Assembly (NCBI GenBank): GCA_003208875.1
Contig: QCUR01000001.1
Coordinates: 64,001 to 128,000, forward strand
Direction: 5' to 3'
Length of the DNA stretch: 64,000 nucleotides
From: Prochlorococcus sp. AG-679-M23
GTDB taxonomy: Bacteria; Cyanobacteriota; Cyanobacteriia; PCC-6307; Cyanobiaceae
Shown here: positions 1-8,900 of the stretch, piece after piece
How the letters are laid out: each line of letters starts with the position of its first letter
Position numbering within the stretch: the stretch's first letter is position 1
Notes under the pieces: generated by a model
The model's input: the letters and a program-made list of their open reading frames with translations, nothing else
What the model was told of the DNA's origin: nothing
Databases searched by the model: none
Translations under genes and position numbers: made by a program

Positions 1-363
1 GGTTCTGAATCAGAAGAACAAAATAATTTTATGGAAGAAATTAAAGAAGAAGAATTTATAGAAGAAGAAGAAGAAGAGTATGAAGAAGAACTTGAATATG
101 TAGAAATTAAAACTGCAAGAGAAAAAATAAATAATAAAAAACAACTTTATTTGGATAATGACTCCTCTGAACAATTAAACAATCAAACTGATGAAGAAAA
201 TACGACAGAATTTGCTGTTAAAAGGTCATCTATGTCTAATCGGGCTTCAAAGAGACCTATTCAAAGGTCACAAGAACCTTTAGATATTGAACCTGTTGAA
301 GAGAAAAAAATAGTTATAGAAAATCCTCAATCAGAATCCGTAGAAATTGATGATCCTTGGTAA
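1..363 (+). CDS. C-terminal acidic tail of a conserved cyanobacterial protein, probably PRC-barrel domain protein (5' truncated by window)
   Basis: Frame is open from base 1 to stop at 361-363; Glu-rich tail ending DDPW; identity inferred only from recalled synteny. Confidence 0.55.
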   Translation, partial: GSESEEQNNFMEEIKEEEFIEEEEEEYEEELEYVEIKTAREKINNKKQLYLDNDSSEQLNNQTDEENTTEFAVKRSSMSNRASKRPIQRSQEPLDIEPVEEKKIVIENPQSESVEIDDPW

Positions 364-374
364 TTATTTAGTAA

Positions 375-1643
375 TTAACTAAGTCTTTTGATCGAATTAA
401 AAATTATGTAAGCTAATTTTTTAACTGCACCAGTTTCCCCTCGTTGTTTTGATAAATTATCTTTTTGCTTTTTTAAATATTTTTTATTTTTTATCAGAAA
501 TATAGCTTCATTAGCGATTTGTTTTGGTGAAATCTTGCCTATTCTTTCTGGGATAATTAACTTATTAGCTTTTATATTTGGCCAAGCAAAAAATTTTTTC
601 TGCTTTAAGTGCCAATTTTTAATTAAAAAAGTGAAGAATTTATTGATAAAAGAAATTTTCCCAATTATTCCGAAGATACCGTCCCAAGCGTTCATTACAT
701 TCAAATGTTGAGTGGGTAGAATAACTATCATAGGTAAAGTAAGCGAAGCTAATTCTGCAGTATTTGCTCCAACTGTGGTAATTGCAAGATCACATTTTTT
801 TAGTACTTCATAGCAAGGATGTTTATTTATTAAATAAATTTTAGTATTATTTTTGGTTTCAATAACATAATCAAAAACGGAACTTTTAATTTGTTTAATT
901 TGTTTTATTTTGGAAGAATAATATTTTGTAATGGGATTTTTATTACTTTGAAAGAATAAATATTCGCTTGTACTTGTAGTTGGCGCTATGGGAATAATTA
1001 AATTAATATTTTTATTGTTTTTATGAATATGATCAGCCATTTCAAGAAAGAAAGGAATGCCTACTGTAAGCTTTGCTTTTTTAGAACCTGGTAGTAAAGC
1101 AATCCAATTTTTTTCTTCAAGATTTAAAGTAATTTCTTTTTTATTCGTAATGTCTGCCATTAAATCGCCAATAATTTTACATTTATATCTATATTTTGAT
1201 GGAATGCTTTTCTTGACGTTTTTATTCATTGCTGCAATTACATTGTTCCAACGTGGCCATCTTGAAATCCATTCAGCATATGTGATGTTGATATAACCTA
1301 ATCTTTTTGCTAACAAAACACTCCAAAATTGATCCCCTCCAAGAAAAATAACGATCCCTTTTTGAGGCCATTTTGCATATTGAGTAGGCCTGATTAATAA
1401 TTTCCAAAAAGTATTTGCTTCTGTAACTAATTCAAATTTGTGCCATGATTTTGCAACTTCATATTCTTTACCAGTAGCATTTGGACACGGTACTAAAACT
1501 AATCTTATGGAGAAATTCAGTTTATCAATATTTTTCGAATCATTATTTATCTTATTTAAATAATCCACTACAGGCTTTACCCACGTTGATAATTCCCCAG
1601 GCCCATTAGAAATAATTACAACTGCAATTGATTTTTTTTTCAT
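375..1643 (-). CDS. lpxB: Lipid-A-disaccharide synthase (LpxB)-like glycosyltransferase
   Basis: SNGPGE N-terminal motif, LLPGSK, TTVGANTAE; start moved to ATG at 1643 because the longer ORF (to 1709) overlaps tRNA-Leu. Confidence 0.75.
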   Translation of the reverse strand: MKKKSIAVVIISNGPGELSTWVKPVVDYLNKINNDSKNIDKLNFSIRLVLVPCPNATGKEYEVAKSWHKFELVTEANTFWKLLIRPTQYAKWPQKGIVIFLGGDQFWSVLLAKRLGYINITYAEWISRWPRWNNVIAAMNKNVKKSIPSKYRYKCKIIGDLMADITNKKEITLNLEEKNWIALLPGSKKAKLTVGIPFFLEMADHIHKNNKNINLIIPIAPTTSTSEYLFFQSNKNPITKYYSSKIKQIKQIKSSVFDYVIETKNNTKIYLINKHPCYEVLKKCDLAITTVGANTAELASLTLPMIVILPTQHLNVMNAWDGIFGIIGKISFINKFFTFLIKNWHLKQKKFFAWPNIKANKLIIPERIGKISPKQIANEAIFLIKNKKYLKKQKDNLSKQRGETGAVKKLAYIIFNSIKRLS

Positions 1644-1668
1644 TGCAGTTAATCCAAAATACATTAAA

Positions 1669-1750
1669 TGCGGACGGCGAGACTTGAACTCGCAAGGCCT
1701 AAGCCACACGCTCCTTAGACGTGCGCGTCTACCAATTCCGCCACGTCCGC
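1669..1750 (-). tRNA. tRNA-Leu (anticodon AAG)
   Basis: Minus strand GCGGACGTGGCGGAATTGGTAGACGCGCACGTCTAAGGAGCGTGTGGCTTAGGCCTTGCGAGTTCAAGTCTCGCCGTCCGCA; GCGGACG/CGTCCGC acceptor stem, CACGT-CTAAGGA-GCGTG anticodon arm, long variable arm, GTTCAA T-loop. Confidence 0.96.
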
Positions 1751-1803
1751 AAAGGGTTTTCGAGCACCAGCGGGTGTCTAAACTATAAAAATATCATACA
1801 TTA
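1710..1803 (-). repeat. Direct repeat copy 1 (promoter/leader + 5' half of tRNA-Leu)
   Basis: 1710-1765 matches 3364-3419 at 52/56; weaker similarity continues to ATACATTA at 1796-1803 and 3450-3457. Confidence 0.9.
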
Positions 1804-1861
1804 TTGACTGAAATTAGGGGTGCAGTCGACGCATCCGCCATATAAAGTAAAGTTTTTAGTT

Positions 1862-3154
1862 TTAGAATTTAAACGCTGCTTCAACCCCTATCGCAGTCCA
1901 ATCATAGAGATAAAATTCGACATCATCAGTAGTCGTTGTACTTGCATGATCAGTAGGCAATGTAATAGTAATTCCAGGCTTTATTTGTAGTGAATCGTTA
2001 ATATTATGTGTGTAGTAAAACTCCACATAACTTCCTATTTCATCGCCCGCAATTTTATTTTCATTCAAGTCTGGGATTTTATAGAATGGATATGTTCTCC
2101 AAGACGCTGAAAGTACTCCATTTTCTATTTCGTGATCTACGCCAAATTGAAAATCAGCAATATGATCAATATCTAATCCTATAGCTTCGACATCAACTAA
2201 GTTAGTCGTAGCACTTAAGGTAGTTCTATTTGTAGGTCTCCAATAACCTCCAATCGAAGTATTTATATATCCTTCATCAAGTGGTCCTGTAATTCCTAAT
2301 TCATTGCACGCATCTGTAACTAAATTATCAACAAGATTACATAGGGAATCTGATTTAGAGTATATAATTCCACCTCCGAAATTTGTGGCGTCATATCCTA
2401 AAGAAAGGGTTAATACATCTATCCCCTCTTTTGTTAAAAATCCAGAACGAGTTGAGGCACCAGTACCAATAATACTTCCAGATAGATTGAGCCCGTTATC
2501 GAATATTTTTGCTACTGCTATGCCAGAACCCGTACCTTGAGTTACATAGTAATTAGATTTAAGTCCAGAATAACCACCTAAGAAAAACTCATCTGAATAT
2601 GTAGATGTAGTAGTTGGCATTAAGTCATCAACATCTAGTAATGTTCCTGTTGCAATTTGCCAACTTCCTAAAGGAAATTGATAATAAAGCGATGTAACTT
2701 TTAGAGTATCACCGCCAGAGTTGGAGCTATCAAGAACAAAATTAGCCCCTGAGAAATCAGAACCTCCATTTCCAGCTTCTATACCAATATATAAATTATC
2801 TTCACCGTTAATACTGGTATTAAGATCGATATCATAAGCGTAAGTTGCAGTAACTGCCTCAGTTCTGTCGCCTTGCTCGACAGCGCCCACTTGAAAAGAA
2901 GCAGAGCCCCTCATAGTGGTTGTTTCAGAAAAAGAACCAGCTTCAAAAGTAGTTAATTGTATTTCTGATCTATCTAAATCTTTTTTAGTTACTTCAATTT
3001 CTTTAACAGGATTGAATTGGTGAATACTTCGAACTGCCTTTGATGAAGAGTAACTAGAAACTTCTATTAAATTAGTTTCACCTGCTGTGATGGATAATGG
3101 AGATAATAAACCTAATGCTGCTGGAGCTACCAACAAATTTCTGAAAAGTTTCAT
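1862..3154 (-). CDS. som: Som-type (OprB-like) outer membrane porin lacking SLH domain
   Basis: Signal peptide MKLFRNLLVAPAALGLL, FEAGSFSETTT motif, DLNTSINGEDNLYIGIEAGN, LYYQFP, C-terminal beta strand ending AFKF. Confidence 0.8.
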   Translation of the reverse strand: MKLFRNLLVAPAALGLLSPLSITAGETNLIEVSSYSSSKAVRSIHQFNPVKEIEVTKKDLDRSEIQLTTFEAGSFSETTTMRGSASFQVGAVEQGDRTEAVTATYAYDIDLNTSINGEDNLYIGIEAGNGGSDFSGANFVLDSSNSGGDTLKVTSLYYQFPLGSWQIATGTLLDVDDLMPTTTSTYSDEFFLGGYSGLKSNYYVTQGTGSGIAVAKIFDNGLNLSGSIIGTGASTRSGFLTKEGIDVLTLSLGYDATNFGGGIIYSKSDSLCNLVDNLVTDACNELGITGPLDEGYINTSIGGYWRPTNRTTLSATTNLVDVEAIGLDIDHIADFQFGVDHEIENGVLSASWRTYPFYKIPDLNENKIAGDEIGSYVEFYYTHNINDSLQIKPGITITLPTDHASTTTTDDVEFYLYDWTAIGVEAAFKF

Positions 3155-3363
3155 TAAATTTCACACACAAAATTTTAATAAGCATATTTTTACAAAATTC
3201 TTTCTAGAAAACTAGCACTTGTCTTCCAATCAAATTAAAAAAAGAAGGTTATTTTCCTCATCCGCCGTACGTATTCAACTGTTGCAGATGTGGATGGTTG
3301 AGAAATAATAAAGGGACTGGCGTTTTAATCTAATCCCTGTATGGGTGCATTATTTTTACGCCT

Positions 3364-3457
3364 GCTCCTTAGACGTGCGCCTCTACTAATTCCGCCAAGT
3401 CAGCAAAGGGTTTTCGAGCGCAAGGGTGTTCTTGAACCACTAAAACAAAATACATTA
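3364..3457 (-). pseudogene. Degenerate 5' half of tRNA-Leu(AAG) with leader (direct repeat copy 2)
   Basis: Matches tRNA nt 1-41 with 4 substitutions (tRNA nt 3, 7, 18, 24), ends just after the anticodon loop; 3' half absent. Confidence 0.85.
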
Positions 3458-3711
3458 ATCGCATTAATTTGCGATAATATTTTACAAATCTGCTAGGTTT
3501 TAATTCTTAAAACATTGGTTTTTAATTAACTAAGTTTTAAATACTAAATAATGACTAATTTTTTCTATTGCATAAATAAATAATTATCCACATATAACGT
3601 TTTAGGTTGTATTGTTAACCAATGCATTCTTGAAATTCAAAAATTTTATTGAATACTCTTTAAAGTATTTTCAATTTAAATTAATTTTTATTTCTTTAAT
3701 TTAATTTTGTA

Positions 3712-5061
3712 ATGGTTGAAAAAGTTTTAATTGCTAATCGTGGAGAAATAGCTTTACGAATTATCAGAAGTTGTAGAGAGCTTGATATTGCAACTGTTGC
3801 TGTTTATAGCACTGTAGATAAAAAGGCTTTGCATGTGCAATTAGCAGATGAAGCAGTTTGCGTTGGGGATTCACTAAGTAACAAGAGTTATTTAAATATT
3901 CCAAATATCTTAGCTGCTGCTACATCAAGAGGAGTTGATGCTATTCATCCTGGTTATGGTTTTCTTGCGGAGAATGATAAATTTGCAGAAATGTGTAACG
4001 ATCATGGCATAACTTTTATTGGTCCATCTCCCAATGCTATTAGATCAATGGGAGATAAATCTACTGCTAAAGAGACAATGGAGAGAGTCGGAGTACCAAC
4101 TGTTCCAGGAAGCAAAGGTTTATTGTCGAATGTTGAGGAGGCCTACGAAATGGCACAAGAGATTGGATATCCCGTAATAATAAAAGCTACAGCTGGAGGA
4201 GGAGGTAGAGGAATGAGATTGGTTGAAAATAAGGCTAACTTAGAAAAAATGTTTAAAGCAGCTCAAGGAGAAGCAGAAGCGGCATTTGGAAATGATGGTT
4301 TATATATGGAGAAATTTATAAAAAAGCCAAGACATGTAGAAATTCAAATCCTTGCTGACAGGTCAGGTAATGTGGTTCATCTAGGAGAGAGAGATTGTTC
4401 TGTACAAAGGAGACACCAAAAATTATTAGAAGAGTCTCCCAGTCCAGCTATAAACCATTCTCTTAGAAAAAAAATGGGTAATGCAGCCATTGCTGCTGCA
4501 AAAAGTATTAGTTATGAAGGGGCGGGAACTGTTGAATTTTTAGTAGATGATGATAATAATTTTTACTTTATGGAGATGAATACCAGGATTCAAGTGGAAC
4601 ACCCCGTAACTGAAATGGTTACTGGTGTTGATCTAATCGCTGAACAAATCAAAATAGCTGGAGGTGACAATTTAGGATTTACTCAAGACGATATTCAATT
4701 AAACGGTCATGCTATTGAATGCAGAATTAATGCTGAAGACCCCTCACATAATTTTCGCCCATCGCCCGGCAAAATAACTGGATGGCTGCCTCCAGGAGGG
4801 CCTGGAGTAAGGGTTGATAGTCATGTTTATACTGGTTATGAAATACCCCCATTTTATGATTCACTTATAGGTAAATTAATAGTCTGGGGTAAAGATCGTA
4901 ATACTGCTATTAAAAGAATGAATAGAGCTTTAAATGAATGTGCAGTAACAGGAATCCCAACAACAATTAACTTTCATTTATCTCTTCTCAATAAAAGAAA
5001 ATTTATGGAAGGCAAAATTCATACAAAATACGTTGAGGAAGAATTATTACCTAACTATTAA
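3712..5061 (+). CDS. accC: Acetyl-CoA carboxylase, biotin carboxylase subunit
   Basis: [42 protein letters not shown]. Confidence 0.98.
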
Positions 5062-5078
5062 TGAAATATGATACCTTC

Positions 5079-5384
5079 TTAACTTATACTCTGTTGGATA
5101 GCTAATTTGATTAAACCTTGTTGACCAACTAATATTTCTCTTAGAAAACTTATTATTCCTATCCAAATTACTGGACTAACATCGACGCCTCCAATGGGAG
5201 GAATCAATTTTCTTGTAAAGTTTAAAATAGAACTTGTTGGGATTGCAATTAATAACCAAAAACCTTTATTTAAATCAACTTTTGGGTACCAAGTTAATAT
5301 TAATCTTATTAAAAAGACTAAGGTTAGAAATGATAAAAGAATTCCTAGGGTAAGATCTAAAGCATGTAAATAATTTTGAGACAA
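5079..5384 (-). CDS. YggT/Ycf19 family membrane protein
   Basis: RLILTWYP...RKLIPPIGGVDVSP motif. Confidence 0.9.
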   Translation of the reverse strand: MSQNYLHALDLTLGILLSFLTLVFLIRLILTWYPKVDLNKGFWLLIAIPTSSILNFTRKLIPPIGGVDVSPVIWIGIISFLREILVGQQGLIKLAIQQSIS

Positions 5385-5474
5385 TGAAATAACAATTATT
5401 TAATCCATCTTAATAAATATCCCATAAGTTAGGATTTAATTCGTATTATAAATTCAGAATTTAATTTTAAAAAA

Positions 5475-5663
5475 GTGATTCAAATTTCAAATCTGATATT
5501 AGCGGCTGATGTTTCCCCAGAAGTGGCTGGTAGTTCTGGTTTTAATATGATAGCGAGTTTCTTCGCAGCAGCATTACTTATAGTTATTCCAGCAGCAGCT
5601 TTTTTGATCTTTGTTAGCCAAAAAGATTCACTTGAACGTACTTCAGCTACACGTAGACGCTAG
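5475..5663 (+). CDS. psbX: Photosystem II protein PsbX
   Basis: Single TM ending [18 protein letters not shown]; located between yggT and ycf66. Confidence 0.88.
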
Positions 5664-5741
5664 TTTTTATAAAAGTTTTAAGTAAACTATATATAAAGGT
5701 GTTTTATTGCACCTTGAAAAAATAAGTTTTGGAGAAAAAAA

Positions 5742-6674
5742 GTGGTCAATGCTAGTCTAAATTGGGCGAGTATTGTAGGCATCGTACTAGCTGTATGTGG
5801 GGGCGGCCTATATTTTTTGAGGTCATTTAAACCTGCGCTGGCAAGAGATTATGATGTTTTCTTTGCGGCAATAGGTCTTTTATGTGGAGGAATATTATTT
5901 TTTCAAGGATGGAGATTAGATCCTATTTTGCAATTTGGGCAGTTTTTGTTAGCAGGAACGACGGTATTCTTTGCATATGAAAGTGTTCGATTAAGAGGTG
6001 TTGCAACTGACCAAGCAAGAAGATCTTCTTATTTTGAAGATGATCAGATTCCAGATATGCCTAGAAATTCTTCTAGAAATAGATTTAATGAGGATTATGA
6101 TCAATTTGAAGATTCTGATAGACCTTCTAGAAGATTCAAACCTCAAGATGATGATTTAGAAGATGATTATATGGAAGGTAGATCGCAAAGGAGAAATATA
6201 TCGAGAACTATCCCTGAGTCTGCAGTAAGCAGGAGGCGTCCTTCTTTGAGAGATTCTAATCGATTTGAGAATGATGAACCTAAGAGAAGAAGAAATCAGC
6301 CTGAAGATAATCGGATGAGAAACGAGGATAGAAGAGGAAGTTTTGGAGAAAGAAGATCATCAAGAAGTGAAATCAAAAGAGGCTCTCGGCCATTATCTAA
6401 TCAAGAAGTTTCTAGAAAATCAAATAATACCTCTCTTAAGGATTCTTCTCCCTCCTCTAATAACACAACAAGATCATCTATAAGATCTCAGACTACAAGA
6501 GAAAAAGTAGAAGATGCATCATTTTCTTCCAATATAAATGAAGTAAAAAAGCCTCGTCAAACAAGAAGTACAGCTGCTAGTGCAAGATCAACCTCTAAAA
6601 ATAAAACTGGAAGATATACTGTAGGCACAAAAAAAAATAAACCCAGAGATAACAGCTCTAGATTTGATGACTAA
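5742..6674 (+). CDS. ycf66: Ycf66 family protein with long Arg/Ser-rich disordered tail
   Basis: LARDYDVFFAAIGLLCGGILFFQGWRLDPILQFGQFL. Confidence 0.92.
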   Translation: MVNASLNWASIVGIVLAVCGGGLYFLRSFKPALARDYDVFFAAIGLLCGGILFFQGWRLDPILQFGQFLLAGTTVFFAYESVRLRGVATDQARRSSYFEDDQIPDMPRNSSRNRFNEDYDQFEDSDRPSRRFKPQDDDLEDDYMEGRSQRRNISRTIPESAVSRRRPSLRDSNRFENDEPKRRRNQPEDNRMRNEDRRGSFGERRSSRSEIKRGSRPLSNQEVSRKSNNTSLKDSSPSSNNTTRSSIRSQTTREKVEDASFSSNINEVKKPRQTRSTAASARSTSKNKTGRYTVGTKKNKPRDNSSRFDD

Positions 6675-6908
6675 TTAAAATATCCCAGCCCAATTAAGAA
6701 ATGATTTTTGACTTATTAATTCAATTAAAATAATTGTTAAAAATCCAAGCATTGCAAATCTTCCATTTGTTATTTCTGAATAATTGCTCCATCCAAACTT
6801 ATATCTATCTTCAATTTCAATTGATTGCTCATCAATATTAATTTCTTCAGAATTTGTTTTTTCTACATCCATAGTTTCCTCATTATTTTGTTCTTGATTT
6901 GAATTCAT
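6675..6908 (-). CDS. hli: High-light-inducible protein (HLIP)
   Basis: FGWSNYSEITNGRFAMLGF (ExxNGRxAMxG). Confidence 0.92.
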   Translation of the reverse strand: MNSNQEQNNEETMDVEKTNSEEINIDEQSIEIEDRYKFGWSNYSEITNGRFAMLGFLTIILIELISQKSFLNWAGIF

Positions 6909-6917
6909 GATTTTAAT

Positions 6918-8900
6918 CTAATTTTTAAAATTATACTTATCTGTAGTAAATAATTTCCAGTCTCCTTTTCCATTTAATTCTAAAATGTTCTCATGAAAAT
7001 CCTTTAAACTAGGCCTATGTCCCACACTTATCAACGATAATTCTCTGTCTCTTAATAAATTATATAGTTTTTTTTCAGTTTTAATATCTAGTGCACTAGT
7101 AGCTTCATCTAACACAGCAAATCTCGGAGAATTGAGTAATAATCTGGCAAAGGCTAATCTTTGCTGCTCTCCTAATGAAAGTATTCTTGGCCAATCTTGT
7201 TTGACGTCAAGGTTGGGATATCTATCAACAATAGAATTTAAATTTACCTCATTAAGAACAGAAATTAAGTGGTCATCACTAAATTTGTCAACTTCTGTTG
7301 GATAACACAATTGTTCCCTTAAAGAACCCAATAGCATATAGGGTTTTTGAGGTATAAAAAGCAAATCACCTGTCTTTGGTTTTTTAATCGTTCCTTGATT
7401 GGGTTCCCATAATCCACTGATCATTCTTAATAAAGAGGTTTTGCCACAACCAGATGGGCCTACCACTAATAATGATTGATTTGTTTCTATACTCAGATTT
7501 AAGTTTTTGATAATAGCTTGATCAGATCCAGGCGGGAAAAGATCAGCATTGTTGATAAGGATAGAAGAATAATCAGAAATTATATTTTGATTGTCTATCG
7601 GCTTGGTTTGACTGATACTTTCAACTTTTGACTGAAAACCCTCTAATCTTCCAATTCCTGCTGTGAACTTTGCAAGTTCCTCTATTTGATTAACTATAAA
7701 AAATAACGAACCCTCTACCATCCCAAATGCAAAGCTTGCTTGAATAAATCGACCATAATCAATATCTCCTCTAAAGTAAGGAATTGCCATTATTAGATAT
7801 GGAAAGAAGTTGCCAGCATAATTAATAGAACGTCTCATTACATCAATAATTACTCTCCAAATTATTAGTAAGTTAAAGTTTCTTACCACTTCTCCCAATC
7901 TTCTCTCTGTTTCACTTTTTTCTGGTTTTTCACCCGAATAAAAAGCTATTGATTCAGCATTATCTCTAATATGAACTAATCCATATCTAAAGTCTGCCTC
8001 ATATCTAAGTTGATCGAAATCAATTTTTACAAGATTTTTTCCAGCAATTAATAAGATAGCAGTAGCAAATGCTGCGTATCCAAATAATGAAAAGGTTAAT
8101 GTTGTACTAATGCTCCATAGTATTAGAATGTTCAGAGAAAAAGTAAGAAGTGCATCAAAAACTCCCAAAGTAAAGGATAAGCTTTGACCAGTAAAAGCTC
8201 TGGTATCATCTGTTATTCGTTGGTCAGGATTATCTACATCTGTTTGTTCTTCATCATTAGGATTTAGTTGGTAGTATGCTTTATTAGTCATGTAGTCTTT
8301 AACTAAGCTTTTTGAAAGCCAATCTCTCCAAATTATTCCTAATTTATAAGTAAAGAATATTTGAGAAACCCGAATTGGGAGCGCTACAGCAAAGCAACAA
8401 GCATAGATTCCTAAAATCCTATAAAATCCATCTTGTTGTTTCTCTACTAAAGCATTTGTTAAGTCTCTAGCAATAAATCCTATTCCTGCATTAATTCCAT
8501 TTACTGCCAAAAGCATTAATACTATGACTGCTAGGAATAACCAATGTACCCATCTGCGATTCTTAAGTTGACGCCTTAAACTAAAAAAACTTCCTGAACC
8601 GATAAGAAATAATCCTGAAAACAATAATCCCCACCAGCCAGACCATATTGTATTAACAGTATTAACTACTCCTCCAAAATATTTATCAAGAAAAATAGGT
8701 TGAATGCTTTCAAAAAAACTAATTATGCCTGTAAGGCCTACAAGAACAATACCGCCTACGCAAAATAAAAGAGATATTAAAAGCCATATAAATTGAAAGC
8801 CATTACATTGATCAATCGGTAAGAAAAATGGTTGGGCTAATCTTCTTAACTTTTGTAGTTGATAAAATATTTTAGATTTATTTTGCACTACATTATTCAT
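6918..8900 (-). CDS. ABC transporter, fused permease/ATPase (ABCD/YddA-like)
   Basis: DNPDQRI, EADFR, NAESIAFY, GPSGCGKTS, LSLGEQQR, LDEATSALD. Confidence 0.93.
   Translation of the reverse strand: MNNVVQNKSKIFYQLQKLRRLAQPFFLPIDQCNGFQFIWLLISLLFCVGGIVLVGLTGIISFFESIQPIFLDKYFGGVVNTVNTIWSGWWGLLFSGLFLIGSGSFFSLRRQLKNRRWVHWLFLAVIVLMLLAVNGINAGIGFIARDLTNALVEKQQDGFYRILGIYACCFAVALPIRVSQIFFTYKLGIIWRDWLSKSLVKDYMTNKAYYQLNPNDEEQTDVDNPDQRITDDTRAFTGQSLSFTLGVFDALLTFSLNILILWSISTTLTFSLFGYAAFATAILLIAGKNLVKIDFDQLRYEADFRYGLVHIRDNAESIAFYSGEKPEKSETERRLGEVVRNFNLLIIWRVIIDVMRRSINYAGNFFPYLIMAIPYFRGDIDYGRFIQASFAFGMVEGSLFFIVNQIEELAKFTAGIGRLEGFQSKVESISQTKPIDNQNIISDYSSILINNADLFPPGSDQAIIKNLNLSIETNQSLLVVGPSGCGKTSLLRMISGLWEPNQGTIKKPKTGDLLFIPQKPYMLLGSLREQLCYPTEVDKFSDDHLISVLNEVNLNSIVDRYPNLDVKQDWPRILSLGEQQRLAFARLLLNSPRFAVLDEATSALDIKTEKKLYNLLRDRELSLISVGHRPSLKDFHENILELNGKGDWKLFTTDKYNFKN

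Follow-up and report, generated by a model that had tools for sequence, protein, structure and literature searches.

The porin gene that lies between two copies of the 5′ half of tRNA-Leu(AAG) in Prochlorococcus sp. AG-679-M23 is very probably framed by the attachment sites, attL and attR, of a T7-like cyanophage integration system. That phage-attachment origin is common to the two leading readings of the island, an integrase-less cassette with T7-like cyanophage arms that is handled by phage integrase in trans, to which an even chance is given, and an inert prophage scar. The island, which resides in the window analyzed here (the whole stretch of 64,000 nt), runs from the host promoter through attL, the P′ arm, the host-type cargo, the P arm and attR to the tRNA 3′ half (Table 1).

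Table 1. Features of the tRNA-Leu(AAG) island and its flanking genes, in window coordinates
Feature	Positions	Strand	Basis
lpxB-like gene, flank downstream of the tRNA	375-1643	minus	Pfam LpxB, E 4.9e-10
tRNA-Leu(AAG), intact, rebuilt at attR	1669-1750	minus	Rfam; ARAGORN gives 1668-1751
attR core (15-nt leader + tRNA nt 1-41)	1710-1765	minus	Direct repeat
Putative live tRNA promoter, proximal part; -10-like TATGAT at 1798-1793	1766-1811	minus	Resembles another high-light host clade
Distal P arm, phage-like; arm repeat GGCGGATG at 1839-1832	1812-1840	minus	Locus comparison
Cargo, 430-aa outer-membrane porin, Prochlorococcus som/OprB-like group	1862-3154	minus	ORF, HMM, relatives, structure model
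Porin 5′ region, not phage-like	3155-3258	minus	Phage homology stops +103 from core
Phage P′ arm	3259-3363	minus	Match to phage locus L036 (86.6% over 97 nt, E 2.9e-29)
attL core (dead 5′ half + leader)	3364-3419	minus	Four changes
Host's original tRNA promoter	3420-3457	minus	Matches own-clade empty sites
accC, flank upstream	3712-5061	plus	ORF + Pfam

An earlier note on this DNA had described a direct repeat of 52/56 identical positions, composed of leader and tRNA nt 1-41, with a porin gene and no integrase between its copies, and the repeat and ORF searches bear this out. The two cores are part of a longer repeat (1710-1803 and 3364-3457; 94 nt, 81% identity), by far the longest among 46 repeat families in region 1-8000, and the attR core ends just beyond the anticodon loop. 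The four mismatches within the first 56 nt (1748/3402, 1744/3398, 1733/3387 and 1727/3381) correspond to tRNA nt 3, 7, 18 and 24. Their structural positions had been offered as evidence that the accC-side copy is dead, an argument that fails given that nearly every position in a tRNA 5′ half is structural; that copy is nonetheless dead, because the 3′ half is absent from it. The only long ORF between the copies is that of the porin (3154-1862, minus strand, 430 aa). The ORF list contains no integrase within the island, and tblastn with three phage integrases finds none elsewhere in the genome, apart from an integrase-tail trace at the AAG site. Besides the tRNA, Rfam detects no RNA family in 1600-3750.

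The exact 41-nt tRNA half is present in six IMG/VR contigs, so that the tRNA part of the repeat does occur beside an integrase in phage DNA, where the earlier note had proposed to look for the repeat. In all four contigs with ORFs listed, the tRNA half has an integrase on one side and a T7-type RNA polymerase on the other, a context that has Pfam support for one contig (L030); three further contigs display the same order, and phage loci of this kind account for 11 of 16 metagenome hits. Over 42-47 nt, the tRNA part of the attR core agrees fully with the attP cores of six phage loci. Every attP that has these arms and enough flanking sequence lies behind a phage integrase and ahead of RNA polymerase. 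The phage attP is composed of a P arm with promoter, the leader and tRNA 5′ half, and a P′ arm with hairpin and arm repeats. The locus shares with this T7-like cyanophage att system the tRNA half and the arms located inside both repeats, in the order attL-P′ ... P-attR.

That the inner ends of the island are phage attachment arms had escaped the earlier note. Support for the P′ arm is strong (E 3e-29 to a phage locus): searched without the core, the 106 nt behind the dead copy match 10 of 12 phage loci and nothing else in their own genome. The P′ arm contains an arm repeat at 3266-3259, a second repeat that is partly decayed, and a hairpin (3338-3312) followed by a T-rich tract. The hairpin is 88.9% paired across 14 sequences; its covariation is not significant, being no higher than in shuffles, its folding z-scores are likewise not significant, and a terminator scan makes no call. 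The P arm is short and chimeric here, and strong in two related cassettes (G186 and G116). The segment at 1812-1840 is too short to give a BLAST match alone; positions -90 to -63 match 12 phage loci at 15-21 of 28 sites, versus 6-13 of 28 for host loci. The repeat in the P′ arm, CGGAYG, recurs in phages at about -85, +2, +128 and +141 from the tRNA start, and is, to judge by its position and conservation, a candidate integrase arm site.

Similar comparisons with cultured phages give partial matches. By blastn, five T7-like Synechococcus phages match tRNA nt 1-29 only, none matches the AAG loop, and the P′ arm has no meaningful match in the cultured-phage collection. P-SSP7, for which a 42-bp match has been reported (Sullivan et al., PMC1079782), and P-SSP3 match Leu(TAA), SS120-1 matches Leu(CAA), and S-TIP37 matches another Leu loop. 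The earlier note did not count this tRNA among the island hotspots, which holds for AAG itself, unmatched by the cultured cyanophages searched, and does not hold for leucine tRNAs in general, the first halves of which are a published cyanophage target (Shitrit et al., PMC8776855). In most AAG-type phages, the integrase frame extends some 60 codons through the P arm and tRNA half (L030:3006-4118, L025:3006-4094 and L028:3006-4091) to end at the TAA of the anticodon loop, whereas in the L029 type it is shorter. This extension is open in every extended type read and is possibly under selection.

Relatives with a single copy of the tRNA 5′ half represent empty sites. Among 285 Prochlorococcus genomes, 23 have an upstream sequence of the same type as this genome and are taken as its own subclade; at the AAG site, six of these are filled and 17 are empty, the latter providing the empty attB expected of a T7-like att system. 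The earlier note had made its reading hang on the existence of such sites, and had regarded the island as a fixed remnant; it is polymorphic, not fixed. No second copy exists in 35 loci from other high-light-type genomes, which were picked by score rather than randomly, and the interval in one such genome (G226) is longer. Upstream of the tRNA, own-clade empty sites match the accC-side copy; thus, this copy is the host original and the live promoter is incoming, as the earlier note had proposed in suggesting that a new promoter and 5′ half arrived at the anticodon loop. Phage arms are absent from the empty sites inspected. On a tree of the flanks (26 rows), the filled alleles are non-monophyletic (p-AU 3e-42; at least three changes). 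However, left-flank and right-flank trees conflict, and so non-monophyly provides no count of integrations.

The promoter regions of the two copies differ in origin. Positions -61 to -15 of the live copy match other-clade hosts best (44/47), with at most 32/47 for own-clade empty sites and at most 30/47 for phages; in sequence, the live promoter is a chimera of phage and other-clade parts. A promoter consensus scan performs at chance level here, and the promoter, arm-site and terminator functions are predicted from position and conservation. The -10-like TATGAT is found in 16 of 17 empty sites, and is replaced by TATTTT (3452-3447) at the dead copy. This hexamer is altered in four of the six filled genomes (L076, L077 and L078; window 3447-3452), with an identical TATTTT in this genome and G118, perhaps reflecting selection against transcription of a half tRNA. 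Just upstream of the host's original promoter is an inverted repeat with perfect arms of six pairs (3458-3475), also present in own-clade empty sites, that could be a site for protein binding or resemble a terminator in both orientations. In two high-light host clades, the tRNA-Leu(AAG) leaders align in register with the P arm of the phages (window 1751-1811; L010-L020 and L086-L110), and the native upstream sequence of G080 is unrelated to it. This likeness could mean either that phages took a host promoter or that host promoters descend from an old phage arm. A phage-arm origin of all high-light tRNA-Leu(AAG) promoters was considered and set aside, since sequences that are similar and in register are compatible with either direction.

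The cargo is host-like. A Pfam search of the porin gives no match, and its score against NF033921 (por_somb; E 3.6e-10) lies under the family cut-off, while 366 relatives at E 1e-30 or better are found among 7999 candidates. The structure model is a beta-barrel (pLDDT 70) with Foldseek matches to general porins at E 1e-12, and a signal peptide (identified by eye) and C-terminal Phe accompany the barrel, as in som/OprB-like porins. Its codon usage is host-type, with a GC3 of 0.20 compared with 0.20-0.21 for lpxB and accC and 0.33-0.38 for three phage genes. The possibility that the porin is a phage gene was rejected on this host GC3 and on a PHROG search without a match. Peptide patterns, which detect close relatives only, reveal no porin relatives in viral contigs and likewise none in genome contigs, and the sole relative among phage records is a distant myovirus porin (27%). 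A search for a donor locus was equally negative: the 21 relatives at other loci (41-66% identity) have no arm or tRNA half nearby. The genome contains three more porin paralogues (G000:C3:109707-113672 and 175043-176248), with 33-39% identity to the cargo. Contigs of an RNA run (X14) cover part of the porin; DNA carry-over is possible, and hence this is no evidence for expression. A raw-read run (X20) leaves the island uncovered.

The same frame can be recognized at the AAG site elsewhere. A search with the P′ arm recovers it in seven of 285 genomes, many of which are incomplete. G220 carries a porin with 70% amino acid identity to the one described here and an attL matching at 56/56; G186 contains a 154-aa ORF and an integrase tail of 56 codons (86%); and G116 contains a Ysc84-domain protein and an integrase tail, the tails of these two genomes spanning 56-61 codons. 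G117 and G118 are cargo-free and about 220 bp long, and G080 has the same frame. Host-side junctions are also present in five of 16 metagenome loci (L143, L145, L149, L156 and L157). L143 has a G220-type porin together with the nt 3 and 7 changes of this genome, L145 and L149 are cargo-free (227 bp), and L156 and L157 derive from hosts of another clade. In L157, the first codons of the RNA polymerase remain, along with two ORFs and an integrase tail; a 268-aa endonuclease-like cargo protein is encoded there (L157:160-963; phrog_3322, E 2.6e-34). The cargo-free scars of G117, L145 and L149 are joined at the shared repeat, and so plain deletion occurs. In G226 (L091, G226:C20), the live tRNA lies behind a phage-type P arm without an attL and with about 400 extra bases, and this arrangement is a late decay stage.

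Allele comparisons point to several processes at this site. Between this genome and G220, porin DNA is 72.8% identical and the flanks are 95.0% and 97.2% identical. In one run (X10), the locus is covered in full at about 96%, the porin allele being the same and the P′ start different; this mosaic and that of L143 mean that homologous exchange would by itself be enough to spread and mix alleles. At the AAG site, P′ homology ends between +103 and +113 in five of eight cases and the P arm starts between -81 and -89 in four of six, and alleles outside those ranges retain more phage sequence. Perfect attL cores exist in G220, G077, G061 and G304. The copy in this genome is decaying, as its four core changes, its broken arm repeat and hairpin pair (one of each) and its dead -10 show, and is probably grounded. 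No excised circle or rejoined attP was found in eight viral and 16 metagenome AAG loci, nor an excised circle in 51 viral TAA loci. Four runs yielded no back-going joint, a weak search, mostly of contigs. Rare or transient forms would escape all of these searches.

A second 5′-half copy in this genome resides at tRNA-Leu(TAA) (L200; G000:C4:120349-121938). Its core is that of P-SSP7, and its P′ arm is P-SSP7-like (E 1.6e-29; 76.7% over 180 nt, core included). Its cargo, encoded on the opposite strand, is a YadA-anchor protein of 372 aa, recognized at the Pfam cut-off. Cassettes of this kind, 636-1590 bp in length, occur in seven of 206 genomes including this one, and the other six contain other cargo. 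P′ homology ends at the arm repeat in all seven, and the live side starts at the arm repeat in six, as judged by pattern. A host-type promoter is situated behind the phage arm repeat in 6/7 TAA cassettes, versus 0/47 readable phage P arms. RNA polymerase lies downstream in 50 of 51 viral TAA loci, and one of the loci is a host-phage junction. In one record (L253), a host promoter is joined to the Leu(TAA) half, followed by the P′ arm and RNA polymerase, and this represents a true host-phage attL junction.

Tyrosine integrases cross over within the core, and crossover at the anticodon loop is a common pattern. Probably, a phage tyrosine integrase crossed over at the anticodon loop here as well, the incoming element replacing the tRNA 5′ half and promoter, in line with the published T7-like case. 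The P arm would then give the rebuilt tRNA its promoter and so would have to stay, and the P′ hairpin could serve to halt read-through from the displaced host promoter. The first cassettes may have formed from an integrated phage through loss of the phage body and uptake of a host gene, after which repeated excision and re-integration by the integrase of infecting phages would have trimmed them to the outermost arm repeats, with homologous recombination swapping alleles as well. In its fullest form, this proposal describes a family of integrase-less cassettes of 0.2-1.7 kb, with minimal T7-like cyanophage arms at two or more Leu tRNAs and mostly cell-surface genes as cargo, that infecting phages, through their integrase, excise, carry from one Prochlorococcus clade to another and integrate anew; it is tentative, with rather less than an even chance of being correct. 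Mobilization in trans is favored by repeat-bounded homology at two tRNAs, promoter swaps that spare the repeat, several perfect cores and the other-clade promoter of this copy. The lack of a circle in 75 att loci and four runs, the deletion scars and the homologous mixing count against it.

The same observations could be accommodated by an inert prophage scar that became a landing pad, a reading that falls somewhat short of even odds. In this view, the cell would have survived integration by deleting the phage body, the P arm would have been kept as a promoter, host genes would have been recombined in later, and alleles would now move by homologous recombination in the flanks only. Such a scar fits a decay series that runs from integrase and polymerase fragments (G186, G116 and L157) through cargo-free forms (G117, G118, L145 and L149) to G226, as well as the mosaic alleles, the decayed attL of this genome and the fact that no circles were seen in the loci and runs searched. 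However, it gives no reason why, at two tRNAs, cargo-bearing alleles retain the P′ arm past the hairpin and as far as the outermost arm repeat, nor for a promoter replacement that spares the arm repeat. In most cases the outermost arm repeats are where homology ends, which suggests integrase acting in trans rather than inert scars.

A remnant of a tycheposon, or of a similar host-range element that encodes a tRNA-Leu integrase of its own, is very improbable. The earlier note had compared the repeat with partial 5′-half tRNA repeats left by tycheposon islands, and tycheposon activity does leave partial tRNAs and integrase-less cargo (10.1101/2020.12.28.424599). Tycheposons also resemble the cassette in their tRNA target, partial far-end tRNA, small host-type cargo and organism, and differ in the tRNAs used, in their own integrase family and in their replication genes. 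Partial tRNA-Pro copies are found in this genome too: four partial copies of tRNA-Pro(TGG) are arranged in tandem (G000:C3:118804-122030), and these are 3′ parts. A single partial tRNA-Thr(CGT)-like copy is located at G000 C2:235577-235623. The seven tycheposon targets are Pro, Ser, Ala, Thr, Arg, Met and tmRNA, and the word Leu is absent from the preprint's main text (10.1101/2020.12.28.424599); the target here is Leu(AAG). The island contains no tycheposon integrase or replication genes, which a remnant could have lost, but its arms are of the T7-like cyanophage attP/attB type and every attP that shares them has the phage gene context described above. In addition, a search run without a positive control finds no relative of the phage integrase at E 1e-12 in 285 genus genomes. 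Least probable of all is single-crossover homologous recombination with a circle of other-clade Prochlorococcus DNA, or a local duplication, without integrase: a live promoter like that of another host clade is consistent with it, but it leaves unexplained why 105 nt of phage P′ arm adjoin the dead core, why the break falls at the anticodon loop and why the same frame surrounds different cargo. Of the two routes entertained in the earlier note, integrase action therefore stands and plain single crossover does not.

The phage-handled cassette can be placed among several known systems. Duplication of the 5′ side of a tRNA by T7-like phages is already known. Integrase-dependent recombination has been shown for the TAA and S-TIP37 sites only, according to the available text of PMC8776855, and T7-like cyanophages are described as integrating transiently, with no stable lysogen or intact prophage in the available portions of PMC1079782 and PMC8776855. 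In contrast to the integration of P-SSP7 and S-TIP37, the AAG island is a lasting cassette without phage genes at a different target, Leu(AAG). T7-like pelagiphages have attP in the same place, between integrase and RNA polymerase, and likewise supply the tRNA 5′ part in a different host; no cargo-bearing remnants are described for them in the accessible text of that preprint (10.1101/410191). CIMEs, as far as the available text describes them, have similarly lost integration genes while attL and attR are kept around cargo (PMC5704250), and the present island, with both att sites and neither integrase nor transfer genes, resembles them in this respect. CIMEs originate from ICEs or IMEs and are mobilized in cis in tandem, whereas the cassette described here derives from a lytic-type phage, its helper would be an infecting phage, and no tandem element is present in the filled genomes read. 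Grounded (defective) prophages are comparable as non-excisable remnants that host new genes (PMC6379469, in the part available). Unlike these, the island has no intact phage gene, retaining attachment arms only, and a single host-type porin occupies the place of the phage genes that a prophage would have between attL and attR. The literature searched (open-access papers and preprint main texts) yielded no report of lasting, cargo-bearing, integrase-less cassettes that have the arms of T7-like cyanophages, and none of the AAG target.

The reason that lytic T7-like cyanophages possess an integrase has been an open question since 2005, and the suggestion that integration might bring new genes into hosts was made without examples in the available text of PMC8776855. 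The cassettes are chromosomal records of such integrations that survived and were inherited (six of 23 genomes in one subclade), and they point to a further target tRNA that is used by uncultured phages. Viruses that are supposed to be purely lytic thus leave behind lasting gene cassettes in the ocean's most abundant phototroph. Export or a surface location seems likely for four cargo proteins (the porin, the YadA-anchor protein, the Ysc84-domain protein and the 154-aa protein with a hydrophobic N terminus), and such cargo may bear on uptake or phage recognition. The twin cassettes at the TAA site make a direct test possible with a cultured, engineerable phage. If a family mobilized in trans does exist, the integrases of lytic phages would gain a lasting role in host gene flow, and an essential tRNA would depend on a promoter region derived from a phage.
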